Assembly: GCA_963741095.1 (NCBI GenBank)
Contig: CAVUGN010000005.1
Span: 64,001-128,000 of the forward strand
DNA length: 64,000 nt
Source: an uncultured Candidatus Micrarchaeota archaeon
Lineage (GTDB): Archaea > Micrarchaeota > Micrarchaeia > Micrarchaeales > Micrarchaeaceae
Direction of reading: 5' to 3'
The first letter of the stretch is position 1; each line of letters starts with the position of its first letter. The translations under genes and the position numbers were made by a program. This document shows positions 4,591 through 61,410 of the stretch, piece by piece. The notes under the pieces were generated by a model. That model ran no database searches and was not told the DNA's origin. It worked only from the letters and a program-made list of their open reading frames with translations.

Positions 4591-5736
4591 ATGCAAATAA
4601 CAATCTTTGACACGACGCTGAGGGACGGAGCGCAGAGCCCGGGAGTGGCGCTAAGGACGGCTGACATGGTTGAGGTCGCCAGATCCGTGGATGGGCTGGG
4701 GGTGAATGTCATCGAGGCGGGGTTCGCGGTGACATCGCCTGGCGAGCGGGAGGGCATGAAGATGATAGCGAACGCCGGACTGAAGGCTGAGATCTGCGGC
4801 CTTGCGCGCGCCGACAAGGGCGACATCGATGCAGTGAGGGAGACGGGTATAAAATATGTGCACCTCTTCATCGGCACATCCGAAACGCACCTCAGGGACA
4901 AGCTTAGGATGACGCAGGGCGAGGCGCTGCAGAAGGCGGAGGGCGCGGTGGGCTACGCCAAATCCATGGGCATGAAAGTGGAGTTCTCGGCCGAGGATGC
5001 GACGGACACCGAGATGGGCTTCCTGAAGGAGGTCTACAGGGCAGTTGCAAGGGCGGGTGCCGACAGGATCAACATACCCGACACGCTCGGACGCGCCACG
5101 CCCAGGCAGATGGCGCGCACAATCCGCGAGATGATGTCCGTTGTGGACCTGCCGATAAGCGCTCACTGCCACGACGATTTCGGGCTTGCCGTAGCCAACT
5201 CGATCGCAGCAATAGAGGCCGGGGCGCAGTGCGTGCACGTCACGATCAACGGAGTTGGAGAAAGAGCGGGAAACGCCGCGCTTGAAGAGGTTGTCGGGAT
5301 CATAAAGCACCTCTCACTGGATGGGGAGTACAGCACCAGCGTCGACCTCAAGGGAGTGTACGAGACATCGCGGCTGGTTTCTTCGCTTTTCGGCATGCCG
5401 GTGCAGCCGAACAAGGCGATAGTGGGCGGCAACGCCTTCGCGCACGAGTCCGGGATACACACGCACGGCATACTGAGGAATCCGAAGACATACCAATACG
5501 TGAGCCCGGACAATTTCGGGAGGACGACCACGATAGTCAACGGCAAGCATTCCGGGGTCCACGGCGTGCAGGCCACTCTCGCGAAGTACGGGATCGAAGC
5601 TCCAAGGGAGAATCTCCTCGAGATTGTGGAGATGATAAAGAGGGCCGGCGACGAGGGCAAGCAGGTCAGCGATGCGGATGTGGTGGCTATGGCAAGGAGA
5701 GTCGAAAGGAGGATGGAGGAGGCGCTGGAGAATTAG
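4591..5736 (+). CDS. 2-isopropylmalate/homocitrate/citramalate synthase family (DRE-TIM), no regulatory domain
   Basis: DTTLRDGAQ, HCHDDFGLAVAN, GERAGNA, HESGIH motifs; substrate not determinable. Confidence 0.9.
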   Translation: MQITIFDTTLRDGAQSPGVALRTADMVEVARSVDGLGVNVIEAGFAVTSPGEREGMKMIANAGLKAEICGLARADKGDIDAVRETGIKYVHLFIGTSETHLRDKLRMTQGEALQKAEGAVGYAKSMGMKVEFSAEDATDTEMGFLKEVYRAVARAGADRINIPDTLGRATPRQMARTIREMMSVVDLPISAHCHDDFGLAVANSIAAIEAGAQCVHVTINGVGERAGNAALEEVVGIIKHLSLDGEYSTSVDLKGVYETSRLVSSLFGMPVQPNKAIVGGNAFAHESGIHTHGILRNPKTYQYVSPDNFGRTTTIVNGKHSGVHGVQATLAKYGIEAPRENLLEIVEMIKRAGDEGKQVSDADVVAMARRVERRMEEALEN

Positions 5737-31842: not shown

Positions 31843-32490
31843 TCACCTACCCTTCGCGGCACGTTCAAGAAGCTCTTTCATGTCTTTGGTCTTGGCGTAG
31901 TCCAGGGCAATCCTGCCCTGCGGGTCTTTTACGTTCACGTCGGCAAGGCTGCTTATCAGTTTCAAAGCGATCTCGTAATTGCCTGCCTCTGAGGCCATCA
32001 TCAGCGCCGTCAACCCCTGACCGTTCTGAATGTCCGGATTGGCGCCCATGTCCAACAGCGTCCAGACAACTGCCCTTTCGTCATTGCGCAAAGCCATCAT
32101 CAGCGCGGTGTCGCCGTCAACGTCCTTCAGATCCACCCCTGCGCCGTTCTTTATCAATAGCCCTACAACTTCATCATTGCCAGTGACCGAAGCACGCATC
32201 AGAGGAGTCAAGCAATCCTTGACGTGCGCATTGACGTCTGCGCCCTTGGCTATCAGCTCCTTGATCTTATTGGTCGAGGCTGATCCGCCCTTTTCTGTTT
32301 CTTCGAGGATCTTCATCCCGAGCTCCCAGGCCTTCCTTTTACTCACAATGGCTTTGCCCGGATCGCCCAGTTCTGCGACCTGCTTGCGGATAGCACTGCC
32401 CGTTGGTCCGTCGGCCTGCCTGACGAAATTGCTGAGCGCTGCCACTCTGTCGATTGTCATCTTCCCATTATTGTCTGCACTGTGCTCCAT
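31843..32490 (-). CDS. Ankyrin-repeat protein with leader motif
   Basis: NGKMTIDRVAALSNFVRQAD plus ~4 repeats. Confidence 0.92.
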   Translation of the reverse strand: MEHSADNNGKMTIDRVAALSNFVRQADGPTGSAIRKQVAELGDPGKAIVSKRKAWELGMKILEETEKGGSASTNKIKELIAKGADVNAHVKDCLTPLMRASVTGNDEVVGLLIKNGAGVDLKDVDGDTALMMALRNDERAVVWTLLDMGANPDIQNGQGLTALMMASEAGNYEIALKLISSLADVNVKDPQGRIALDYAKTKDMKELLERAAKGR

Positions 32491-32622
32491 TTTGTCGTCA
32501 CTTTTCAGCGTCTTACGTAGACGATGCCGTACATAGGAATTGGGTCGCAGGAGATATTTATAGACGAAGTTAGCCTTCGTCTATTGACGATTCGAGTTCA
32601 TTTCTAAGAAAGTGTTGGAGGA

Positions 32623-33165
32623 TTAATTTGTTTGCTGCTTTGGAAGAATCTGGCTTTTTGCCAGCTTCTCCATCGTGTCTTGTGTGGCCGTGGAATTGCG
32701 CGCCACATGCATCTTAATCTTCTTTCCCTTGTCGTTTGCCAGCTTCTCCAATGTTGCTATTGACGTAGGCGTGCTCGGTATGGACCGCGGCATCGGTGGG
32801 ATGGATAGGGATCTGAAAATGACGTCACTCTCGTACGCGAGGTCGTAGACATTGTACACCTGCGTGTTGCTGATGAAGTACTTCGTCGGGCCAAGCGGTT
32901 CTGGCATATCGTAGAGCGCCTTATGGCCGTTTTCATAGCGGTTTATCTTGCTTATGCGATCCGCATCCGCTTCCGATATCTCATGGGCCGAATAGACGGT
33001 TCCTTCGTCCGAGAATCTGGATATTGCAGTAACGAGGTACACGGATCTCTCGTTCGTGCCGCGCTTCATGCCCATGACCTCCTTGTCTGCGGCCCCGCCG
33101 GACTGCTGGACGAACGCCTTTATCGCTTCGGCTCGCTCCGGAGTCATCCTTCCGTCCTTGAGCAT
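32623..33165 (-). CDS. Leader-motif protein, non-ankyrin, with C-terminal LRV-like repeats
   Basis: DGRMTPERAEAIKAFVQQS leader; TLEKLAND...VARNS...MEKLAK. Confidence 0.75.
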   Translation of the reverse strand: MLKDGRMTPERAEAIKAFVQQSGGAADKEVMGMKRGTNERSVYLVTAISRFSDEGTVYSAHEISEADADRISKINRYENGHKALYDMPEPLGPTKYFISNTQVYNVYDLAYESDVIFRSLSIPPMPRSIPSTPTSIATLEKLANDKGKKIKMHVARNSTATQDTMEKLAKSQILPKQQTN

Positions 33166-33176
33166 TGGCTTCCATT

Positions 33177-33449
33177 TTACCTTGCCTTCCTGTACTCGTA
33201 ATGGCTTACGACCCTGCCGTATTTGTTGCTTATGTTCCTTGAGATGTAATTTGTCACATTGACAGGCTCCTTCCCGTTCATGAACCTGGCCTTGACTATG
33301 AAGCCGCAGTCGCCCTCCGTCAGGTAAACGGATTCTACAGGCTCGAGCGCTATGAGCTTCTCCGCAAGCTCTCCAGCGTTGACACTGGGCCTTGGTTTTA
33401 TGAAGTAGAACTTGCTCATCAGGCCGCGCTTCGTGCTGCCGTTCCTCAT
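33177..33449 (-). CDS. Stand-alone Lrp/AsnC ligand-binding (RAM) domain protein
   Basis: VESVYLTEGDCGFIVK pattern; ATG 33449 overlaps upstream TGA. Confidence 0.7.
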   Translation of the reverse strand: MRNGSTKRGLMSKFYFIKPRPSVNAGELAEKLIALEPVESVYLTEGDCGFIVKARFMNGKEPVNVTNYISRNISNKYGRVVSHYEYRKAR

Positions 33450-33538: not shown

Positions 33539-33901
33539 TCATCCACCAATCAAGCATAAGTCGGGTAGAACGATGGAGTAAGGAAGAAGATGAAATAGGC
33601 TATCAACCTAGTCCCTATTCTGCTTTCCAGTGTGTGGTAGGAATGGTAGAGAACAGTCTTCCAAGAGGTAGTATTGCAACCCCTTACAATGGTCTTCCTT
33701 CGAAGATCAACGTTACCCATTTGGTTCCACCCATAGATATTATGAAGTTTGTTGTATTTAGGGGTGCCACACAATTTGTAGGCGAAAAGCGTACACAAAA
33801 ACAAATTTTACATTACTAAGGTCGTTTATTATCTAAATCTTGTAGTATTGCAATTCAAAAATGCCACAAGACTTAAATATTTATTGTAGTATCATATTAC
33901 T

Positions 33902-35290
33902 ATGAAAGACGTTCCAAAGGCGATTAGCGAGGAATTTGGAAGATTGAAGAGGAAATATCCCTTTTATATAGTCCTTACGAGCAAGAACGGTCACTATTAT
34001 GTTTACAGGCACCAAGGGCAGTATGTAAAAAGAACAGGAAAGATCAGATCGATAAGGACGTACTTAGGTAGGATAACTCCATCTGGAGAATTCCTGAAGC
34101 GGGCAGTATTGACGGACAATGACGTAGAAAAAGCAAAAGCTATTATTCTAGCCCATGGAGGCAAGGTGGTACTACCTGAGGAGAGTTTGGTAATCAAACC
34201 CGAAGGTGCAAATGAAGAACCATATGAAAGGCGGATATTGACTTTGTTGAGCACTGATGCGCGCATGGGTGTTTTAGAGATAAGCAAGCAGATTGGATTG
34301 TCTTACGCTGCAACGTTAAACAGGATAAAAAAGATAGAAGAGAAATATGGGATAAAATACACAATCGAATATGGATTTCTTGATAGATTTAATATTCATA
34401 GATTTCTTGCGATAGCAAAGTTTACGGACAAAATACCCGATACACTAGAAGTCAAAAAATTGATAGAGTCAGAGCCCAGAGTCCAACTTGCATTGTGGGC
34501 AGTAGGTGGGTATAATTTGATACTTTTTATGCTCGCATCCACTCCAGCAGAAGCCGAAGACTTAGTTTACAAACTGCGATCAGATCCAGTATTGAGTGAT
34601 TACTCGGCAGATTGGTATTCGAGCTATTTTACTCACGGGTATGGGTATGTTCCTTTGAGGGATAAATTTTTTGAGTTGATCAAAGAGAGAGTTTGGCGAA
34701 GGACGAAGGAATCGCCTAGAAAGTTACCGGGGCAGATTTTCTACAGAGAGTACGCTACAATGAGAGAGTTAAATGTAAATGGATTGGCGGACTTCTCTTT
34801 TATAGATAAAAAGTATAAGTTGAATAAGGGTTCCGCACAGTACACTTATCATGAATTGATAAAAAATGAGAATGTTTGGAGAGTAACCGTAACAATGGAA
34901 AACCCCCCGATAAAGGATGTTGTAATAATAAATTTAGAGCAGGAAGATATCGGAAAATTTAACCGGAATAGGAGAGAGTATTTGTTACATCAGTTAGATG
35001 AAAGTGATGCTCCGCTTAATAAGTATCTTTACACGGGTGATGTTGGTTCTCCTTACGGCATTATGCTTGTAGCTCCGTTGTATAAGGAGGGGGATTTGGA
35101 TGCATTATTATCTACCTTAAACAAAGTTGCAAAAGGTGTACGGATAAGAACTTCGATTGTAAGTAGCATATTGGTAGGCAATCTTGGATTCCGAAAGATA
35201 GATTCAACTAAAACGTTATGGTATAAACTTATGAAAAATCGGATTGAAGAACAGATAGTAAGTGCTAAAACTGATGATGAGAACGATTAG
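33902..35290 (+). CDS. Large Lrp/AsnC-family regulator (N-terminal YYVY..YLGRI domain plus HTH and duplicated RAM-like domains)
   Basis: RILTLLSTDARMGVLEISKQIGLSYAATLNRIKKIE AsnC HTH; GGYNLILF; AT-rich. Confidence 0.75.
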   Translation: MKDVPKAISEEFGRLKRKYPFYIVLTSKNGHYYVYRHQGQYVKRTGKIRSIRTYLGRITPSGEFLKRAVLTDNDVEKAKAIILAHGGKVVLPEESLVIKPEGANEEPYERRILTLLSTDARMGVLEISKQIGLSYAATLNRIKKIEEKYGIKYTIEYGFLDRFNIHRFLAIAKFTDKIPDTLEVKKLIESEPRVQLALWAVGGYNLILFMLASTPAEAEDLVYKLRSDPVLSDYSADWYSSYFTHGYGYVPLRDKFFELIKERVWRRTKESPRKLPGQIFYREYATMRELNVNGLADFSFIDKKYKLNKGSAQYTYHELIKNENVWRVTVTMENPPIKDVVIINLEQEDIGKFNRNRREYLLHQLDESDAPLNKYLYTGDVGSPYGIMLVAPLYKEGDLDALLSTLNKVAKGVRIRTSIVSSILVGNLGFRKIDSTKTLWYKLMKNRIEEQIVSAKTDDEND

Positions 35291-35299
35291 ATGATATGT

Positions 35300-35323
35300 T
35301 TATGCGCCGTTTCCTCCCAACAT
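35300..35323 (-). CDS. Micro-ORF MLGGNGA
   Basis: TTTAAAG box at 35354-35360; RBS AGGTGA-AATC-ATG; TAA stop. Confidence 0.55.
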   Translation of the reverse strand: MLGGNGA

Positions 35324-35519
35324 GATTTCACCTGTTATAGCATCTCGGATAAGCTTTAAATGGCTTGCGTTTTGCATGATTTAGCGCATTCTATGCGTTG
35401 CTCGAATTGCCTCTTTACGCTCTTTTAGATTACAATATAACGGGTATAAACCAGTAAAGAATCGGTTAAACGAGGATTAAATAGTACAGCTACTAGCTAA
35501 GAATAGTTTAATTACCTGT

Positions 35520-35546
35520 TTATGTTGCTCCGTCTCCGCCTGTCAT
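35520..35546 (-). CDS. Micro-ORF MTGGDGAT
   Basis: TTTAAGG box at 35576-35582; CAGTGAGATT-ATG; TAA stop. Confidence 0.55.
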   Translation of the reverse strand: MTGGDGAT

Positions 35547-35619
35547 AATCTCACTGTTTAAGCATCTCTGAGAAGCCTTAAATATTTTGCGCCAAGCAAA
35601 ATTTTCTTCTAAAAGGGCC

Positions 35620-35643
35620 TTATGGTCCATCGCCACCGTTCAT
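35620..35643 (-). CDS. Micro-ORF MNGGDGP
   Basis: Third unit of a tandem run; TAA stop; weak RBS. Confidence 0.45.
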   Translation of the reverse strand: MNGGDGP

Positions 35644-35662
35644 CTTTTAGTCATTTCCGATA

Positions 35663-35686
35663 TTACCCCGTTTCGCCTCCTTCCAT
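35663..35686 (-). CDS. Micro-ORF MEGGETG
   Basis: AAGTGA-AATC-ATG; TAA stop. Confidence 0.55.
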   Translation of the reverse strand: MEGGETG

Positions 35687-35705
35687 GATTTCACTTATCT
35701 GGATA

Positions 35706-35732
35706 TTAACCTCCAGATCCGCCTCCTTCCAT
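35706..35732 (-). CDS. Micro-ORF MEGGGSGG
   Basis: TTTAAGG box at 35761-35767; CAGTGAGATC-ATG; TAA stop. Confidence 0.55.
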   Translation of the reverse strand: MEGGGSGG

Positions 35733-35857
35733 GATCTCACTGACAGCTATCTCTGGAAAGCCTTAAATGGTTTTTGTCTTTTATGGCCAAGGGATATGAG
35801 CACACTTTCATGCGCTCCTTGAGTTGATAATATAAATCTTAAGGTAGAATCGTTACC

Positions 35858-36055
35858 ATGGGAATTTTGGACCATCTAAAGAAGTTCATCGACGACTGCA
35901 AGCACGTGCTGAGCGTAAGCTACAAGCCGAGCCCGGAGGAGTTCAGCAAGAGCGCGAAGCTGATAATAATAGGCATACTGCTCATGGGCCTCCTGGGCTT
36001 CCTGATAGCGGTCGTAATCTCTTACATCATAACGGGCTCGCTCACGCTCATATGA
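35858..36055 (+). CDS. secE: Preprotein translocase SecE/Sec61gamma
   Basis: VLSVSYKPSPEEFSK..IGILLMGLLGF. Confidence 0.9.
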   Translation: MGILDHLKKFIDDCKHVLSVSYKPSPEEFSKSAKLIIIGILLMGLLGFLIAVVISYIITGSLTLI

Positions 36056-36845: not shown

Positions 36846-37610
36846 TCATTGCGGCAGGTGCCTGAGCAGACCGCTTATGTCCTTGTCCTCGATTATGAAG
36901 CTCGCCGCCGCTCTTACGTCAGCGCTCTTCGTGTTTATGACGACGGGCAATCCGACTCTCCCTAGTATGGGTATGTCGTTTCTTGCATCGCCGACGTAGG
37001 AGCACTGCTGCATGCCGATGTTCATCTCGCGGCATATGCTGCGCAGCGCCGTGACCTTGCCCTCGTCGTCCAGGCCGGTTATTATGCCGCCCTTCAGCCT
37101 GCCGCTCTTGCTGAAGATCAGCTCGTTCGCCAGGTAGAGATAATCGACCTTTATATCGTACTTCTTGGCGAAGAGGTCGTAGACGTTCCTTATGCCGCCG
37201 GATATGATGGCCGTCTTTATGCCCCGCTTTTCCAGCTCGCTGAACAGCTCCTTGGTTCCGGGCATGATCTCGGTCTGGTTCATTATTATGTCCTCGAGCA
37301 TCTGCCTCGTCAGTCCGTGCTTTTTGAAGTTGTCGATGGACTTCGACACCCAGGTCACGTAGTCGAACTCCCCGCGGTAATAGGCGTCGCGCATCTCCCT
37401 GCGCTCGGCTTCCGCGCCCAGCGCGTCGCCGATTAGCTCCCATGTTGATTTCTTGACGAACTCCCAGGTGCTCTTCGAACCGGGACTGTGGATCAGAGTG
37501 CCCTCGAAATCGAAGACCGCGAGTTTTATGCTGTGGACCCTGTGGCTGCTGCCGCTCGCTGAGGCATTTTGCACCGCTGCGGCGTTGGCATTCGCCTGTT
37601 TTTCAGCCAT
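36846..37610 (-). CDS. HAD-IB phosphoserine-phosphatase-like hydrolase
   Basis: FDFEGTL, ISGG, GDARND. Confidence 0.85.
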   Translation of the reverse strand: MAEKQANANAAAVQNASASGSSHRVHSIKLAVFDFEGTLIHSPGSKSTWEFVKKSTWELIGDALGAEAERREMRDAYYRGEFDYVTWVSKSIDNFKKHGLTRQMLEDIIMNQTEIMPGTKELFSELEKRGIKTAIISGGIRNVYDLFAKKYDIKVDYLYLANELIFSKSGRLKGGIITGLDDEGKVTALRSICREMNIGMQQCSYVGDARNDIPILGRVGLPVVINTKSADVRAAASFIIEDKDISGLLRHLPQ

Positions 37611-37778
37611 GGAATTCACGTTATGGCTGTTCTGTTCTGTCAGATATTTATGACTTTTTATTAAAAATGTGAAAATTTAGGAGCGATAGTTCGTAATTGG
37701 ACTACGCAGGATAAATTGCATATATAAGTTTAAAAGATACATTTATATATCTAATTGATATATAGATAATTGATAAAC

Positions 37779-38057
37779 ATGGCTTCGGAAAAACAGGTCC
37801 AGATGCAGATTCAGCATTCACCTACATTGAACACTGTGCTCATGGTTGAAAAAGTCCTTAGGGATAGTAAGGAAGTTATCAAGATATCGGAGCTGAAACG
37901 AAGATTGCCTAGAAAGGTGATGCATTCGACTCTTCTTGAGATTTTGGATTATCTTCAAGTTAGTGGCAAGATACTGATAACTACGAAGGGGGTGGTGTGG
38001 ACTTACACCCCCAAAGACGCGATGGATAAACTGATAAAAGGAGGGTTGGAACTGTGA
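37779..38057 (+). CDS. Putative antitoxin / wHTH protein
   Basis: HSPTLNTVLMVE...LEILDYL; GTGA overlap with RelE-like gene. Confidence 0.7.
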   Translation: MASEKQVQMQIQHSPTLNTVLMVEKVLRDSKEVIKISELKRRLPRKVMHSTLLEILDYLQVSGKILITTKGVVWTYTPKDAMDKLIKGGLEL

Positions 38058-38419
38058 AGACACCGAAAATCATAAGACTGATTCTCAAAAACCAGGCTAA
38101 AGAGGCATACGAAATGCTTTGTAAGGTTGTAGAAGAGTAGAGAGATAAGGGAAGGACGAACTCGGAGGAGATGCAATTGCTGAAATCGATAAACAATAAG
38201 ATAGAGATTCTCAAGTACAATCCGACGTACGGGCAGGGCATGGCAAAAGAGCAGATACCAAAGACCCTTGATGTCGATAATTTATTCAGAGTGGAACTTA
38301 CCCATTATTGGAGGATGCTGTACACAATCAGGACCAATGAGGTGGAGATAGTGAATTTTGTCTTGTACATAATAGATCACAAAGAGTACGACAGGATGTT
38401 GGGCTACAGAAAAAGATGA
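38054..38419 (+). pseudogene. RelE/ParE-like toxin with in-frame TAG at 38138-38140
   Basis: GTG 38054 in frame with 38171 ORF; LFRVEL..YWRMLYTI...DHKEYD. Confidence 0.65.
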
Positions 38420-38478
38420 TTGTTGGAAGGTTCCCGGCAATCTGGATTTCGATGCCTGTTTTTATTTTAAAGATAAGA

Positions 38479-38564
38479 TGCAAGGAGAGAGATTTGAACT
38501 CTCGAACCCGCTAGGGGATCAGGCCCTGAACCTGACGCATTTGACCAAGCTTTGCTATCCTTGC
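38479..38564 (-). tRNA. tRNA-Leu(CAG)
   Basis: GCAAGGA/TCCTTGC-A; TCAGG-TTCAGGG-CCTGA; long variable arm; TTCAAAT loop. Confidence 0.95.
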
Positions 38565-38631
38565 ATGATTCTGTTTGGCAACTTCAGGATTTATATCTTA
38601 TTATCTAAGTGATATTGCTTTATTGGTTTCT

Positions 38632-55787: not shown

Positions 55788-57083
55788 ATGAGAAGAGTCC
55801 GAGTGGTCAGCAGCCTGAGCTTCTTCGATTCCGTAATGCTGGGCATAGGCTTCATAGTCGGCTCCGGAATCTTCATAATGCCCCTGATCGCTGCAGAGAC
55901 GTCTGGAACATATTCCATAGTCGCATGGGTCGTCGGCGGAATCTATCAGATCCTCACGGGGCTCTGTTTTGCGGAATGCGCGATGAAGATTCCGAAGGTC
56001 GGAGGGCTCTACAGCTATGCGCACAAGGCTTACGGCGACTTCACCGGGTTTTTCGCCGGCTGGACCTTCTGGATCGGATACCTGGTGACGATCGCAGCGG
56101 AGCAATGGGCATTGGGGTGGTACCTGCAATTTTTCCTGCCGCAATACTCCCTTCTGATAAGGGTCACGATCGGCGTGCTGACCGGCCTTGTCCTCACATA
56201 CCTGAATTTCAGGGGCGTCAAGCTCGGCGGAAGGATAGAGGATTACTTCACGGTCGGAAAGCTGTTAATAATCGCCCTTTTCATCATAGGCGCGCTCATC
56301 TTCTTCAAGCTGGCGAATTTCTATCCGTTGATACCTCCGGGCACCAACCTGTTTCCTGCGATCGGCTCGACTTCCATCATAGTTCTGTACGCCTATCTGG
56401 GCGAGGAGATCATAACCGTGCCCGAAGGCGAAAGCGAAAAAGCCAAGAAACTGATCCCGAAGGCGATAATGATCGCTTCGGTATCCACCATGATCATCTA
56501 CCTCCTCGTCGTTGTAGCTTTTCTCGGAGCTGCAAGATGGACCAGCTTCACGGCCTCACAGTCTCCGTTGGCTGCGGTTTTCAGCAGCATAACCCACTCG
56601 GAGATAGGTGGGATAATAATCACGGTCGGGGGCGTTCTCGCCATAATAGGCTCACTGAACGCAGTGATCCTCGGAACTGCAAGAATAGCGACCGCCATGT
56701 CAAACGATGGATTGTTCCCAAAAATATTCGGAAGGATAAGCGTGAAACGCCAGACACCTTACATGTCCTTGCTGATCCAAACGGTCATTGCGGTGATCCT
56801 GACCTACACGGTCAAGGATTTTGTCACGCTGGCTTCGATCGCGGTCTTCTTCACGATATTCCCATACGCGATCACCGCTTTTGCGACCCTGGGGCTAATC
56901 AAGAAGGCGGGAGGAAGACTGGACATCCTGCATTCGAAGGCGATTCCGTTGATAACGGGACTGGTCTCGATAATACTGCTTGGCACCTATCTGGCCCAGC
57001 CGTTAGTCCTAGAAGTGATAGTGGTCCTGTTCTTTGTCGGGCTGCTGATCTTCATAGAGCGAAAGAAGATCCACAAGCTGTAA
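55788..57083 (+). CDS. APC-family amino acid permease
   Basis: GFIVGSGIF, GGLYSY, YAYLGEE. Confidence 0.9.
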   Translation: MRRVRVVSSLSFFDSVMLGIGFIVGSGIFIMPLIAAETSGTYSIVAWVVGGIYQILTGLCFAECAMKIPKVGGLYSYAHKAYGDFTGFFAGWTFWIGYLVTIAAEQWALGWYLQFFLPQYSLLIRVTIGVLTGLVLTYLNFRGVKLGGRIEDYFTVGKLLIIALFIIGALIFFKLANFYPLIPPGTNLFPAIGSTSIIVLYAYLGEEIITVPEGESEKAKKLIPKAIMIASVSTMIIYLLVVVAFLGAARWTSFTASQSPLAAVFSSITHSEIGGIIITVGGVLAIIGSLNAVILGTARIATAMSNDGLFPKIFGRISVKRQTPYMSLLIQTVIAVILTYTVKDFVTLASIAVFFTIFPYAITAFATLGLIKKAGGRLDILHSKAIPLITGLVSIILLGTYLAQPLVLEVIVVLFFVGLLIFIERKKIHKL

Positions 57084-57113
57084 AGACGTGGGAAATGCAA
57101 CCATGCGGGCAAG

Positions 57114-57689
57114 TCAGTTTACCCGCGTGTAGTTCAGTTTTCCCGTGAGGTAGTACTCCGAATAATAAGCAAGTGCGGCCGCAATGTTCTTGTTGATGGC
57201 TGCCTGCGAGAATTTAAAGAACTCTGAAGGCGTCAGCGTCACCGCGTAGGTCGGGGATATCCCGGTGTTCACTATGCCCTGCTGCACTGAGAGGCTCTTG
57301 CTCTGCCCGTTCCAGCTCACGGTCAGTTGCCCTATCGGGGTGCTGTTGCCGGGGATCTCGTCCGTGACCTGCACCGACCAGCTCTGGTTCACCGGAAAGT
57401 GGTAGTTCGGGGCGTTATCCAGGTAGAAAAGCCCGAGGTTCTGGTTGCTGTTCTGCATCGTTGCAAGCTGGTTAGTGAACTGGCTGTGCTCCTGTGCCGG
57501 AGTTGCCGAATAGTACATCGAAAAGAAGAACACCGCGACAAGCAGCAACAGGATGATGATTATCCCGGCAATTAGCGCCCCATGGCCCTTCTTCTTGGCT
57601 GCAGGCGCCTTCGCGTTGTTTGTGGTTTTTGTGCGGGTCGTGTATGTCGTAGTCTTGGTAGTTCCATCCGTGTCCGTCTGCTTTGCCAT
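57114..57689 (-). CDS. Membrane-anchored hypothetical protein
   Basis: Basic N-terminus, one TM, exported domain. Confidence 0.7.
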   Translation of the reverse strand: MAKQTDTDGTTKTTTYTTRTKTTNNAKAPAAKKKGHGALIAGIIIILLLLVAVFFFSMYYSATPAQEHSQFTNQLATMQNSNQNLGLFYLDNAPNYHFPVNQSWSVQVTDEIPGNSTPIGQLTVSWNGQSKSLSVQQGIVNTGISPTYAVTLTPSEFFKFSQAAINKNIAAALAYYSEYYLTGKLNYTRVN

Positions 57690-57755
57690 GTTAATCCCAT
57701 CAAAAGTAAAATATTTAAGCGTTCTGGGCGATCAAACCGTAAAGCCGGCCGGTCC

Positions 57756-58028
57756 TCACTTAGCCACCCCGTCCTTAACCTCAAGCCTCGAGATGTAAGT
57801 GATGGCTACCACGGCTATAACCGTTATTATGATCGCATAGCCGAGCAGGGCCAGCAGTGTCGATTGCGGGCCCAGAAACTTCGTGAACGCGGCCTGTATC
57901 AGTGTGTTCCACGCAAGGGCCGCAACGAAACCGAAGGCCGCGGTCATCAAGGTAACTACATTATGTATCGTCTCCTTCTTCAGCCTCGCTCCTCTCGAAA
58001 GGGGTGTCTTTATCGTTTTTTTCGGCAT
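57756..58028 (-). CDS. DUF5654-like small membrane protein
   Basis: LMTAAFGFVAALAWN...YAIIITVIAV. Confidence 0.8.
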   Translation of the reverse strand: MPKKTIKTPLSRGARLKKETIHNVVTLMTAAFGFVAALAWNTLIQAAFTKFLGPQSTLLALLGYAIIITVIAVVAITYISRLEVKDGVAK

Positions 58029-58038
58029 GCTATCCCAG

Positions 58039-58296
58039 TCAGCTCCTGCTCCTGTCAAACAAGGCAAAAAGGGCGACCACCAGCCCGATTATCGCAGCGA
58101 CGATGCCACCTATTTCTAGCAGCTGCGCGTTGGAGCAGGTCTGCGCCCTCTGGCCCCCGAAGAACGTGCTTATGGCCGTGGCAATGGTGCCCCCGGCCGA
58201 ATTGCACTGGGTCACAGTCAGATAGCTCTGCCAGGCCAGCACGGCCCCGACAACCAGCAATATAACTCCAATGATCACTGCACTCTCTTTGCTCAT
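58039..58296 (-). CDS. Small two-TM protein with Cys-bracketed loop
   Basis: TM-C..C-TM pattern. Confidence 0.65.
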   Translation of the reverse strand: MSKESAVIIGVILLVVGAVLAWQSYLTVTQCNSAGGTIATAISTFFGGQRAQTCSNAQLLEIGGIVAAIIGLVVALFALFDRSRS

Positions 58297-58532
58297 CCAA
58301 TTACCCTAAGACAATGCTCAGCAGGCAAATATTAACCTATCTGTTAGGCCCGCTACTGCCATTCACCCACCATACCCCGTTATAACGTCGATAAACGGCT
58401 GTGGCTGCGAACTTGTAACTTTCATCTTCTTGGATAAACTTTTCTATTATCATATTATTATAAAAGTAAAGTAACATTTAAAAAGCAAAGACTTATAAGC
58501 TTAATTAAAGTATACTAATCCGGGGTGATGAA

Positions 58533-59681
58533 ATGTTATACAAAAGCCTATTTGGACTGATAATATCCGTTCTTCTTCTGTCGCAAGCAGTTTATGCTGC
58601 AGGCCCTGCAGCTGTGAATCTTGGGTCTGCGGGGAGTTTTGCCATCCTGTCAAAGTCAGGCATCTCAACCACCGGAACCACCTCGATAATTGGCGATATC
58701 GGAGTGAGCCCAATCGACAGCACAGCCATCACCGGGTTTGGATTAACACTAGATTCATCAACTCAATTTGCAACGTCCCCCATAGTGACTGGAAAAATTT
58801 ATGCGGCTGACTATAGCGTTCCGACCCCGGCCAAAATGACTACTGCCATCGGTGACATGCAAACTGCGTACACCGACGCAGCAGGGAGGACAGACCCCAC
58901 CGCTACTGAATTGGGTGCCGGAAATATCGGCGGAATGACGCTCGCTCCGGGTCTTTATAAATGGTCAACAGGTCTTACAATACCGACAACTGTTACGCTC
59001 TCAGGTGGCCCGAATGATGTCTGGATCTTCCAGGTAGCACAGAATCTCAATGTGGGCAACGGTGTCAGTATCATTCTGAGCGGCGGCGCACAGCCGCAGA
59101 ACGTCTTCTGGGTGGTTGGTGGTCAAGCAACCCTCGGAACAACGTCTAGCTTCGAAGGAATTATACTGTCCCAAACCGCGATTGTGGTAAACACCGGGGC
59201 GCAAGTTAACGGCAGATTGCTCGCGCAGACTGCAGTCACGTTAGACGCTGACGCTGTGACAGCACCGGCAGGTTCAGCATCAACATCAACACCCACGACG
59301 ACAATCAGTGGGCCGTCAACAGCACCAACAACGACAATCAGTAGTGGGCCATCTACTGCACCAACAACTACGATAGCATCGCCTGCATCCACGACAACAA
59401 TTAGCACTACAACAGTTAGCGGAGGCAGCGCATCAACCACTGTCGCAGCGACGACCACGATAACCACCTCTTCAACAACGATTGGGAACGGAGCAACCGC
59501 CACAACAATATTACCCACATCCGGCGCAGGTGGATTGTACTTCACGTGGCAAGGAAGCGGATATTACGAGATAACATCGGGAGGGCCAAGCATATCGGCA
59601 ACCGGCATGAAACCCGGGGTTCAGTATTGGGTCTCGAACAAAGCGTTCATCGACGGAGTCAATTCGTGGATCGGGTCATAG
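58533..59681 (+). CDS. Secreted ice-binding-like (DUF3494) protein with Thr-rich stalk
   Basis: AVNLGSAGSFAILSKSG, TLAPGLYKW, VWIFQ, NVFW, GRLLAQTAVTLD. Confidence 0.92.
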   Translation: MLYKSLFGLIISVLLLSQAVYAAGPAAVNLGSAGSFAILSKSGISTTGTTSIIGDIGVSPIDSTAITGFGLTLDSSTQFATSPIVTGKIYAADYSVPTPAKMTTAIGDMQTAYTDAAGRTDPTATELGAGNIGGMTLAPGLYKWSTGLTIPTTVTLSGGPNDVWIFQVAQNLNVGNGVSIILSGGAQPQNVFWVVGGQATLGTTSSFEGIILSQTAIVVNTGAQVNGRLLAQTAVTLDADAVTAPAGSASTSTPTTTISGPSTAPTTTISSGPSTAPTTTIASPASTTTISTTTVSGGSASTTVAATTTITTSSTTIGNGATATTILPTSGAGGLYFTWQGSGYYEITSGGPSISATGMKPGVQYWVSNKAFIDGVNSWIGS

Positions 59682-59733
59682 ATTTTGTAAAGGGGATACC
59701 GACTGACAATGGGATACTATACTAAGTGATAAA

Positions 59734-60117
59734 ATGGCAGAAAAAATCATGAGATTCAGGGGGAAGAAGAAAGATCTTGACAAGCTTTCGCAGGAGATAA
59801 TGGGAAGGCTTGAGTCGGAAGGCTATACGAATCAATCCACCACGGCTCCCGCTGGGATAATAATACAGACGAAGAAGGCAGGGATAATGAGGGACGTGAT
59901 AGATGCCGATAGGGCGTTTACGATACTGATAGCCGGCCAGCCGAACGATTTTGCGGTGCACATAGGGATAGGCAAATTAGTTCAGAACCTTGCGGTGGCT
60001 GCGACAGAGACGCTGCTGTTGTCTAGTCTGTTCCTGACCGTGGACGTTCCAGAGATGCTCTGGACGAAGCACGTCGAGAACGGTTTGGCGCAGGAAATAA
60101 CAGAGATCGTTGGTTGA
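59734..60117 (+). CDS. Conserved hypothetical protein
   Basis: 127-aa ORF with RBS; AFTILIAGQPNDF.VHIGIGK. Confidence 0.7.
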   Translation: MAEKIMRFRGKKKDLDKLSQEIMGRLESEGYTNQSTTAPAGIIIQTKKAGIMRDVIDADRAFTILIAGQPNDFAVHIGIGKLVQNLAVAATETLLLSSLFLTVDVPEMLWTKHVENGLAQEITEIVG

Positions 60118-60152
60118 CTCCAACGATCGCATCCTTTTATCGGGTGAAAAAA

Positions 60153-60302
60153 ATGAGAGCAGGTTTGCTTGTTGGAGGGTTAATATTCCTAGTCGTGGGA
60201 CTGGGCTTGGATGCGTCGTTGTTGGGCCTGATCGTGGGAATACCCGTAGGAATCATCGGAGTCATAATGATCATAGTGGGTTTTTTCAGTAGGGGCAAAT
60301 AA
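60153..60302 (+). CDS. Small membrane protein (paralog of next gene)
   Basis: MRAGLLVGGL...; GGTGA RBS. Confidence 0.7.
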   Translation: MRAGLLVGGLIFLVVGLGLDASLLGLIVGIPVGIIGVIMIIVGFFSRGK

Positions 60303-60334
60303 AGTGATCTGATAATCAAACTTGGGCGAAAAAA

Positions 60335-60616
60335 ATGAGAGCTGATCTGCTTGTTGGGGGCCTGTTCCTACTGGTCGTAGGCATAGTCCTTGATGTAACG
60401 CTGATAGGGGCAATCCTGGGGTTGCCGATAGGCGCCATTGGCGTTGTAATGATGATTGCAGGGTTTTTCATGGGCGGGGGCGGCGGCAAAGGCCAAACGA
60501 AAGGGCAGCAGAGCTCCGATGAAAAGCAGAGGCGCTACCAGCGCTATCAGGCAGAACAGTACAACAGGCATAGGCGGCAGATAGAATCGCAGGAGAGATC
60601 AAAGAAAAAACAGTAG
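60335..60616 (+). CDS. Small membrane protein with charged tail
   Basis: MRADLLVGGL... paralog of the previous gene. Confidence 0.7.
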   Translation: MRADLLVGGLFLLVVGIVLDVTLIGAILGLPIGAIGVVMMIAGFFMGGGGGKGQTKGQQSSDEKQRRYQRYQAEQYNRHRRQIESQERSKKKQ

Positions 60617-60652
60617 AACTCCTTGGCGCGATCGCGCTTTACGAGTGATTGG

Positions 60653-60880
60653 ATGGAACAAACAAAAAATGAGAAGATGGAAGGCAAGATGAAGATGTGG
60701 AAGATGCAGAAGGAGATGCTCAACTCCATGGGCGACAAGGAACTCCGTGCGTTCATCACGGGCTACATGATGGCCGAATCGAAGATACTGAAGGCGATGA
60801 ACTCAGAGTGCGGCTGCGGCTGTGGTTGCGGACAGGAGTGCAATTGCGAGGACGGTTCTTGCAAGTGCGATGAGAAATGA
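60653..60880 (+). CDS. Small protein with metallothionein-like Cys-rich tail
   Basis: ECGCGCGCGQECNCEDGSCKC. Confidence 0.65.
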   Translation: MEQTKNEKMEGKMKMWKMQKEMLNSMGDKELRAFITGYMMAESKILKAMNSECGCGCGCGQECNCEDGSCKCDEK

Positions 60881-61008
60881 GCAACATGCTCGTTTCCATA
60901 TCCTAGATCCTTACTGAGCGATCCTTTTTCGACAGTTTCCTACATCTTTTTAACTCTGTTTATTACCCGCACCGATACCCTTAATAAATTTGGTTATTAG
61001 GTATTACC

Positions 61009-61410
61009 ATGTCACTGGTGCAAGAGTTCAAGGACTTCATAATGAAGGGAGACGTCATAGACCTTGCGGTTGCAGTGGTGGTGGGGCTCGCCTTCAACAC
61101 CGTCGTGACTGCATTCGTAACCGACATAGTAACTCCATTGATAGGAATTCCCGGTCATGTGAATTTCGCGACATTGACCTACACGATCAACGGCAGTACA
61201 ATCCTGTTTGGCACGTTCGTCAATGCGGTGATAAACTTCATCACGATAGCGCTTGTTGTCTTCTTCTTCATAATAAAGCCGATGTCGAAGATAAAAGAGA
61301 AGACTACGAAGAAGGTAACTCTATCTCCAACAACGAAGCAGTGCCCCGAATGCCTGTCCGTCATACCGATAGGGGCGAAACGCTGCGCCTTCTGCACCTC
61401 CAAATTATGA
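61009..61410 (+). CDS. mscL: Large-conductance mechanosensitive channel with C-terminal zinc ribbon
   Basis: EFKDFIMKGDVIDLAVAVVVG; CPECLS..CAFCT. Confidence 0.93.
   Translation: MSLVQEFKDFIMKGDVIDLAVAVVVGLAFNTVVTAFVTDIVTPLIGIPGHVNFATLTYTINGSTILFGTFVNAVINFITIALVVFFFIIKPMSKIKEKTTKKVTLSPTTKQCPECLSVIPIGAKRCAFCTSKL

Follow-up and report, generated by a model that had tools for sequence, protein, structure and literature searches.

What occupies the apparently empty gap between an Lrp/AsnC-type regulator gene and secE in the genome of an uncultured Candidatus Micrarchaeota archaeon? The stretch of DNA analyzed here, hereafter the window, comprises 64,000 nucleotides of contig CAVUGN010000005.1 (C5:64001-128000) from a genome of 1,078,454 bp in 11 contigs. 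In this gap an initial annotation had described five minus-strand micro open reading frames (micro-ORFs) of 7-8 codons, and had suggested that they encode a diversified set of peptide signals or ligands read by the adjacent regulator, or else minimal precursors of the RiPP (ribosomally synthesized and post-translationally modified peptide) type. We found this array to be one local instance of a two-gene module specific to the lineage, in which a tandem-Lrp/AsnC gene is joined tail to tail by a miniature gene.

Reading the minus strand of 35250-35870, we recovered all five micro-ORFs exactly as they had been claimed, at the same coordinates, each with Gly-Gly at residues 3-4 and each ending in TAA. 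Their Gly codons vary just as the initial annotation had listed them (GGA GGC, GGT GGC, GGC GGA, GGA GGA). They lie between the gene of the 462-aa regulator (33902..35290, plus strand), which was characterized by Pfam, paralog search, predicted structure, and profile and Foldseek matches, and secE on the other side of the array; Pfam confirmed the identity of both neighbors (PF13404 and PF00584, respectively). The start context GTGA(A/G)AT(C/T)ATG, containing a GTGA-type ribosome-binding site, is present in four of the five micro-ORFs, the exception being MNGGDGP. Likewise as initially annotated, the TATA-containing repeat TTTAA(A/G)GCTT..C.GAGAT is found in three units, with the first T of TTTAA located 35, 36 and 37 nt before the ATG, and these three promoter units correspond to the families D1-D3 in a repeat analysis of the window.

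All three units are on the minus strand. Unit C (35300..35378; nhmmer E 8.6e-19), the closest to the regulator, consists of a putative B recognition element (BRE) and TATA box (TTTAAAG, 35360-35354), the conserved segment CTTATCCGAGATGCTATAACA, a Shine-Dalgarno (SD) sequence GGTGA, and the micro-ORF MLGGNGA (35323-35300), whose TAA stop is 9 nt from that of the regulator. Unit B (35520..35600; nhmmer E 1e-21) has a TATA box TTTAAGG starting at 35582, the conserved segment, a GTGA SD, and the micro-ORF MTGGDGAT (35546-35520, TAA). Unit A (35620..35785; nhmmer E 2e-18) has a single TATA box, TTTAAGG from 35767, followed by three serial micro-ORFs that all end in TAA: MEGGGSGG (35732-35706), MEGGETG (35686-35663), which has its own GTGA SD and a weak nhmmer match (E 0.25), and MNGGDGP (35643-35620), which has no clear SD; GGCCCTTTTAG comes after the three. 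Downstream of unit B, alignment against 35200-35290 revealed a degenerate relic of the regulator 3' end (35420..35515, minus strand), and a further repeat, D4, pairs 35220-35242 with 35443-35465 at a spacing of 223 nt, which equals that of the units. Because a degenerate copy of the last ~100 nt of the regulator gene lies behind unit B with an equal period, the array appears to have grown by tandem duplication of the gene 3' end together with its unit, with a period of ~222-223 nt. The relic would also give the unit B transcript partial complementarity to the regulator 3' end.

The arrangement recurs throughout the genome. There are 12 paralogs of the 462-aa protein, 31.5-37.3% identical to the window protein, and just past the stop codon of every one of them (12/12) we found a convergent promoter, GGTGA, ATG and a Gly-rich micro-ORF on the opposite strand, with a stop-to-stop gap of 9-79 nt. 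An nhmmer profile built from the three window units and searched against the whole genome returned 16 unit copies at E <= 5.5e-5, all 16 at the 3' ends of the 12 paralogs. The units are built alike, with ..ACACAAGCTATTTAAGCCTTTTCAGAGATGTTTGGACA(G)GTGA..ATG leading into a Gly-rich ORF of 5-13 codons. At several loci one or two further micro-ORFs are present, some with their own promoter and others promoterless, with only the SD and ATG repeated. Counting both strands, the genome contains 44 ATG-initiated micro-ORFs of 4-15 codons in which Gly makes up 40% or more; 19 of these fall inside twelve 650-nt convergent zones that make up 0.36% of strand positions, and those with G[TA]GA 3-5 nt before the ATG all do so (15/15). 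The 19-nt promoter core, at up to 4 mismatches, occurs 13 times in the genome, 11 times in units and twice at sites that lack a TATA box. The association of micro-ORFs with the regulators is far beyond chance. As predicted from these signals, the miniature gene comprises a BRE/TATA promoter, a conserved segment of ~20 nt between TATA and start, a GGTGA SD, and an ORF of 5-13 codons (4-20 in relatives).

The module is conserved in related genomes. Source records label the homologs of the regulator as Lrp/AsnC regulators of Micrarchaeota or Micrarchaeia metagenome-assembled genomes, with some Marsarchaeota, which fits the initial guess of a DPANN source. Searching with a single protein yielded two ~36%-identical loci among genome contigs (L037 and L038) and no locus among metagenome contigs; a search with an alignment yielded one truncated contig, L039, which lacks the 3' flank. 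A profile of the paralogs matched at E <= 1e-10 in 37 of 41 related genomes. At E <= 1e-60, the threshold set for the full-length architecture, the protein family is present in 36/45 genomes of one taxonomic family and 17/25 of a second family of the same order, and in none of 80 genomes sampled from 18 other families of the phylum (the unpublished genome G054, a positive, was counted only in this tally). Several of the relatives included consist of a single contig.

We collected 3' flanks from 74 loci (12 from this genome, and 29 and 33 from relatives) and dropped two with a flank shorter than 120 nt, leaving 72 loci in 30 genomes of the same order. A strict rule, requiring TTTA[AT] 24-48 nt upstream, an SD-like core and a convergent ATG-initiated ORF of 4-20 codons ending within 200 nt of the regulator stop, detected a unit at 35/72 loci, compared with 2/72 in the reversed sequence and 0/72 on the sense strand. 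With relaxed distances the count rose to 50/72 (38/60 outside this genome), against 3/72 for reversed sequence, 2/72 for the sense strand, and a mean of 4.7 and maximum of 7 for shuffles. The tie between micro-ORFs and the Lrp-type protein, proposed from the window, is therefore found at 12/12 paralogs and at 50/72 loci of 30 genomes. By eye, and not by computation, about 8 of the 22 relaxed negatives have a unit with a variant SD or variant TATA, among them L032 with seven micro-ORFs in a row (MGGAGGGG, MGGSGGGS, MSGSGGGG and so on); some 13 loci have no unit at all, including the sister pair L024 and L026, in which another gene is found at that place.

The partner is a true Lrp/AsnC-type protein with helix-turn-helix (HTH) and RAM domains; what had been described as a giant Lrp/AsnC regulator consists of an N-terminal domain of unmatched fold and two tandem Lrp modules. 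The N-terminal domain spans ~90 aa and the two HTH+RAM modules lie at ~105-250 and ~281-430. In the AlphaFold model (predicted local distance difference test score, pLDDT, 82.5), residues 1-85 form a helix, three long strands and a helix, followed by a disordered linker and the two modules, and each HTH is followed by the beta-alpha-beta-beta-alpha-beta pattern that is a feature of RAM. Residues 108-147 match AsnC-type winged HTH families (PF13404, E 6.9e-8; PF13412, E 8e-6), and residues 105-240 match many chains of Lrp and feast/famine regulatory proteins in PDB profiles (1ri7, E 8e-16; LrpA 1i1g, E 7e-13), with the alignment spanning residues 22-141 of the 1ri7 chain, that is, HTH plus RAM. 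Foldseek matched single Lrps with template-modeling (TM) scores of 0.64-0.75 on the target, and the best whole-chain match was the tandem-Lrp fold of NirDL (4ch7, E 3.2e-11, TM 0.45/0.64; 4czc, E 2.5e-10). For the N-terminal domain, Foldseek found no match at E <= 1e-3, and the best Z in VIA was 4.8. Upstream of the window regulator, TTAAATAT lies ~30 nt before the ATG, as does TTTAAATAT in the regulator genes; since the promoter motif is only ~30 nt from the ATG, the regulator mRNAs may well be leaderless, unlike the SD-led micro-ORFs.

Are the micro-ORFs translated? The 16S rRNA, located with RF01959, has the 3' end ...GAUCACCU (...GGAUAGAUCACCU; L073 3470-3494, G000 C1:100574-100598), which lacks the usual CCUCC. 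In this genome GGTG and GTGA are enriched ~5-fold at positions -14 to -6 of long ORFs and GGAGG is barely enriched. Given this 16S tail and the matching enrichment before long ORFs, the SD of the genome is of the GGTGA type, and it is GGTGA or GTGA that stands 3-5 nt before the ATG of the micro-ORFs, including the promoterless secondary ones. The promoter and ribosome-binding signals initially read from the window thus suit the organism. We also considered GGAGG tracts as Shine-Dalgarno decoys, and rejected this role because the 16S tail lacks CCUCC and GGAGG is barely enriched before genes.

Residue usage carries a further signal. The 148 codons after Met1 in the genome's 21 ORFs encode 90 Gly, 14 Asp, 9 Ser, 8 Glu, 7 Thr, 6 Asn, 4 Ala, 3 Pro, 2 Trp, 1 Lys, and no Arg or His, with five hydrophobic, aromatic or Cys residues in total and no signal-like segment. 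AGY and AAY codons (Ser, Asn) outnumber AGR and AAR codons (Arg, Lys) by 12:1, where purines make up 58% of third positions (binomial 2.3e-4), and Ser is drawn from both of its codon families (TCN 3, AGY 6). The in-frame stop is the earliest of the three frames in 13/19 ORFs (19 of the 21 being scored), compared with an expected ~1/3, and the pattern DPGK.GG is common to loci of two genera (L016 and L022) with synonymous differences. Because the SD fits the 16S tail of the organism, basic residues are avoided and Ser comes from both codon families, the micro-ORFs are likely to be translated.

The proteins and the promoters of the module have different histories. In a quick maximum-likelihood tree of 41 full-length proteins, supported by SH-aLRT values only, this genome's paralogs are interspersed among proteins from other genera; the window protein, for instance, clusters first with L018 (SH-aLRT 94) and, at the next node, with L021 and L025 (98). 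The paralogs therefore predate the genera. Over the 45 nt that precede the ATG of a micro-ORF, units beside different paralogs in this genome share 79% identity on average (0.62-0.96), and 26-35/45 positions are identical between sister orthologs in other genomes, which have common promoter versions of their own (as at three loci each in G006 and G011). Since promoters of 79% identity stand beside proteins only 31-37% identical to the window protein, the unit promoters evolve in concert within a genome, a pattern that fits one genome-specific trans factor or gene conversion. Between TATA and ATG, an inverted repeat such as ATTCCA-N3-TGGAAT was seen, by eye only, in L016, L049 and L045 (G011), L046 (G002) and L021 (G018).

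How might the anatomy of the units, their 1:1 pairing with the regulators, their conservation, their organism-fitting translation signals, and their residue and codon biases work together? We tentatively favor, at somewhat less than an even chance, feedback by a translated micropeptide on the tandem-Lrp regulator with which it is paired. Transcription of the micro-ORFs would start at promoters of their own, and translation would yield Gly-rich micropeptides, acidic or neutral, which, if short-lived, would report by their level on current transcription and translation. The target of the peptide would be its tandem-Lrp partner, where it would in the simplest case serve as an effector at the interface of the RAM domains, at which this family binds amino acids, and the conserved segment just downstream of TATA would be a candidate operator through which the Lrp-type protein gates the micro-gene. 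In the part of PMC2995911 available to us, P. furiosus LrpA is described as a repressor that binds immediately downstream of the TATA box, and the accessible text of PMC6495379 and PMC4231749 gives microcin C MccA as a precedent for ribosomal translation of a 7-codon gene. Extra copies would raise the dose (the window array has three promoters and five ORFs, and one relative has seven ORFs), and arrays of units with their own promoters favor a trans-acting product over a purely cis effect. The more specific form of this reading, in which Micrarchaeota possess private ribosomal micropeptide effectors for tandem feast/famine regulators, with up to a dozen pairs per 1-Mb genome and peptide genes that are complete transcription and translation units of 60-80 nt, we consider rather unlikely.

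Several results weigh against a peptide effector. The initial annotation had taken the synonymous variation of the Gly codons as a sign of selection on the peptide; the residue-level biases do speak for such selection, but the codon argument itself is weakened, as GGA accounts for 63% of Gly codons in the micro-ORFs but for 21% in long ORFs of the genome and for 22% in the paralog genes (chi-square p ~1e-12 to 1e-21). This bias points to a constraint at the RNA, DNA or tRNA level that a pure peptide model does not explain. In addition, the units within one genome are paralogous, such that the composition statistics overcount independent events, and the set of micro-ORFs from relatives was chosen with a filter for small residues. 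Stable, specific peptide-regulator pairs found no support, as peptide and regulator similarity are uncorrelated in a Mantel-type test (Spearman 0.06, with 524/2000 permutations reaching the observed value); a second such value was reached by 1289/2000 permutations. In the closest ortholog pair, from the same genus with 74% identical proteins, MSEGGWS in this genome corresponds to MAANWGG, both of 7 codons, and 35/45 of the upstream nucleotides are identical compared with 16/24 in the ORF; the peptide sequence either matters little or turns over fast. The near-uniform promoter does not fit 12 private operators, and the promoter segment of this genome is no more palindromic than shuffles, unlike typical Lrp boxes. 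Finally, the fact that units and regulators strictly converge, stop to stop, suggests that their arrangement in cis is itself important. We had also considered paralog-specific peptide signatures, with Trp-containing peptides in one clade, DPGK in another and MGGxGx in the clade of the window protein, and set these aside on the negative Mantel-type test.

The chief alternative is a cis-antisense or translation-sensor module, which we regard as a possible though doubtful account. Here a short RNA from the unit promoter would reach into the 3' end of the regulator gene and the regulator transcript would extend back over the unit, so that the two would interfere by polymerase collision or RNA duplex; the micro-ORF would be translated but its peptide would be a by-product, while ribosome progress over GGA codons, read by a single tRNA-Gly(UCC), would set the stability or length of the antisense RNA and thereby couple regulator level to glycine or translation supply. 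Units are always convergent, 0-90 nt from the stop; at 7/12 loci the first run of at least four T on the micro-ORF strand lies inside the regulator coding region, and at 7/12 no T4 occurs on the strand of the regulator ahead of the micro-ORF ATG, although inferring terminators from T runs is weak in archaea. The strong GGA bias also agrees with this account, with ARAGORN reporting one tRNA-Gly(UCC), which decodes GGA, and one tRNA-Gly(GCC), as do the fast turnover of the peptide while promoter, SD and ATG are kept, and the relic of the gene 3' end retained behind unit B. However, distant units that have promoters of their own (at as much as 480 nt in this genome, and the seven ORFs of L032) cannot all act by overlap, and a by-product would need neither the avoidance of Lys and Arg nor Ser from both codon families.

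If instead a non-coding purine-rich (GGA)n tract were selected as RNA or DNA, for example as a G-quadruplex, a triplex or a protein-binding site, trinucleotide slippage would produce the 3-nt periodicity, and ATG and stop would be incidental. Such an element would account for the excess of GGA among Gly codons (63% compared with 21% genome-wide), the near absence of third-position G (8/137), the length changes in whole codons and the fast sequence turnover, but we think it improbable: every unit has an ATG with the organism's SD at the right distance, even in the promoterless repeats, the G-rich tract stops at the in-frame stop, purine-rich Arg and Lys codons are avoided, and many relatives have few GG runs (MDGTR, MDGAY, MRIGDT). 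A role as an SD sponge is unlikely, as GGAGG is not complementary to the 16S tail. At gathering score, Rfam reported nothing in the window beyond two tRNAs, nor any match at E <= 1 in 35150-35900, and three putative unit transcripts folded no better than shuffles (z -1.70, +1.32, +0.70), so that neither a known nor a structured small RNA finds support. Quite improbable, too, is that the peptides are end products, either an exported or host-directed signal or a minimal modification precursor, with the tandem-Lrp protein merely regulating the promoter. The residue bias, the dose-raising arrays and a promoter segment unique to the units would suit such products, and a 7-codon gene does yield the microcin C precursor, as stated in the parts of the microcin C literature cited above. 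Yet the peptides have no leader and no hydrophobic or signal segment, a C-terminal Asn is found in just 1/21, contrary to the MccA rule, and the neighbors at the window locus, regulator and secE, include no modifying enzyme or transporter, so that the initial suggestion of RiPP-like precursors is not supported; nor would an end product explain why each paralog needs its own copy.

Other genes accompany some of the modules. Divergent from the window regulator lies a possible accessory gene (33186..33440, minus strand) for an ~85-aa protein (..YGRVVSHYEYRK) without a Pfam match. Its family, with the consensus ..EGDCGF.VKARF....YISKN.S.KYG..VSHYEYRK, is present five times in the genome, with two identical copies; it lies divergently upstream of 4/12 paralogs, with other copies at L003 1540-1797 and 6749-7006 and at L001 ~4639-4890, and may be a third component of some modules. 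Two stretches, L005 717-6221 and 7156-12394 (G000 C5:49716-55220 and 56155-61393), form a segmental duplication, each duplicate encoding a large protein (MRNEKTIEK..), one paralog of the regulator family together with its micro-ORF units, and a CGACGYKSC protein of 263 aa. In L004 1459-8218 (G000 C11:48959-55718), two radical-SAM (S-adenosylmethionine)-like genes (..CNLNCTYCYAQP.. and ..CNLACPNCYAQP..) adjoin ORFs of 373 and 130 aa with the common N-terminus M..KQASKAESATRVQN; this region looks like a peptide-modification cluster between two modules.

The window regulator also sits in one of two islands of low GC content (33600-35800 and 37600-38400; 0.36-0.42 against a background of 0.52-0.58, or ~0.52-0.55 for the first island), and GC is at most 0.43 in 9/12 paralog genes despite the age of the paralogs. 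Window positions 31843-33165 (minus strand), together with C5:95095-95841, contain at least three neighboring genes that share the N-terminus ..GKMT.DR..A...FV.Q..G and diverge after it, which marks a local paralog family; its 180-aa member has no Pfam match. At 38477-38565 (minus strand), ARAGORN identified an 89-nt tRNA-Leu(CAG), not reported by the Rfam tRNA model at gathering score, which may be a long-variable-arm or intron-bearing tRNA.

Because gene callers discard ORFs of 5-13 codons, a conserved class of this kind, with its own promoter and SD and a fixed protein partner, would be invisible in all annotations of these genomes. The module bears on how genome-reduced, host-dependent DPANN archaea regulate themselves, considering that a 1.08-Mb genome gives 12 genes to this family, and its promoter units would be a clear example of evolution in concert. 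Provided that the peptides are made, the regulator and micro-gene would be a compact, synthesizable pair that can be tested in vitro with the 462-aa protein, a 60-bp promoter and a 7-mer. Were the private-effector reading true, the module would be the first gene-encoded peptide-transcription factor signaling system in archaea and would include some of the smallest functional genes, with peptide level serving as a read-out of translation or of host amino-acid supply. The antisense or sensor reading would likewise make the module an unusual control device, strictly conserved at the 3' end of its gene.

How does the module compare with known systems? A literature search, outside of supplementary files, found no description of micro-ORFs beside Lrp-type genes in archaea, and the accessible part of PMC5498576 refers to no more than an ordinary Lrp beside a copper ATPase. 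Since the defining features of known systems failed where tested and no description was found, the module is a real, conserved and apparently undescribed kind of genetic element. Its closest relatives in the receptor are the archaeal Lrp/AsnC proteins (FL11/PH1519, LrpA), which it resembles in the HTH and RAM at ~105-240, by profile and by fold, and in a conserved segment that sits downstream of TATA, where the available text of PMC2995911 places LrpA repression. It differs in that the partner is not a single chain of ~150 aa but a 462-aa protein with two fused modules and an N-terminal domain of ~90 aa, present as 12 paralogs in a 1-Mb genome. The known effectors of the Lrp/AsnC family are free amino acids, not encoded peptides, and we know of no Lrp with a dedicated convergent micro-gene. 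The siroheme decarboxylases NirDL/AhbAB share the tandem Lrp-like fold and provide the best whole-chain structural match; identity is only 11%, NirDL has no counterpart of the N-terminal domain, the first HTH of the partner still scores as HTH_AsnC, and 12 paralogs are a misfit for one enzymatic step. The 12 paralogs and the 11% identity argue against membership of the partner in this group.

Among systems with very short ORFs, mccA of microcin C resembles the micro-genes in being a translated ORF of 7 codons with its own SD, according to the parts of PMC6495379, PMC4231749 and PMC4010828 available to us. In contrast to mccA products, only 1/21 peptides here ends in Asn, no MccB-like (ThiF-like) enzyme was found by Pfam beside the window locus, the one of the 12 loci covered, and the partner is a DNA-binding-type protein. 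Attenuator leaders and type I toxin-antitoxin loci also involve a very short ORF whose translation may outweigh its product, or one that is antisense to its neighbor. Unlike attenuator leaders and upstream ORFs, however, the units have no co-directional downstream gene, and 12/12 face the 3' end of a convergent gene. Type I toxins are hydrophobic, membrane-active peptides of roughly 20-60 aa, whereas the module peptides are hydrophilic, Gly-rich and far shorter.

The nearest parallel in gene arrangement is that of the RRNPP pairs of Firmicutes and their phages (Rgg/SHP, PrgX/prgQ, AimR/AimP), in which a transcription factor is encoded beside its cognate peptide gene and, for prgQ and prgX, the transcription units overlap in antisense. 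The module shares this adjacency of micro-gene and regulator gene, at 12/12 loci in this genome and at 50/72 across genomes. It departs from the RRNPP pairs in its receptor, which has an Lrp fold with no TPR by Pfam and fold searches, and in its peptides, whose primary translation products are 5-13 residues long and bear no signal for export or processing, rather than being secreted as pro-peptides; the module is, moreover, archaeal, and its miniature gene always lies convergently at the 3' end of the regulator gene.

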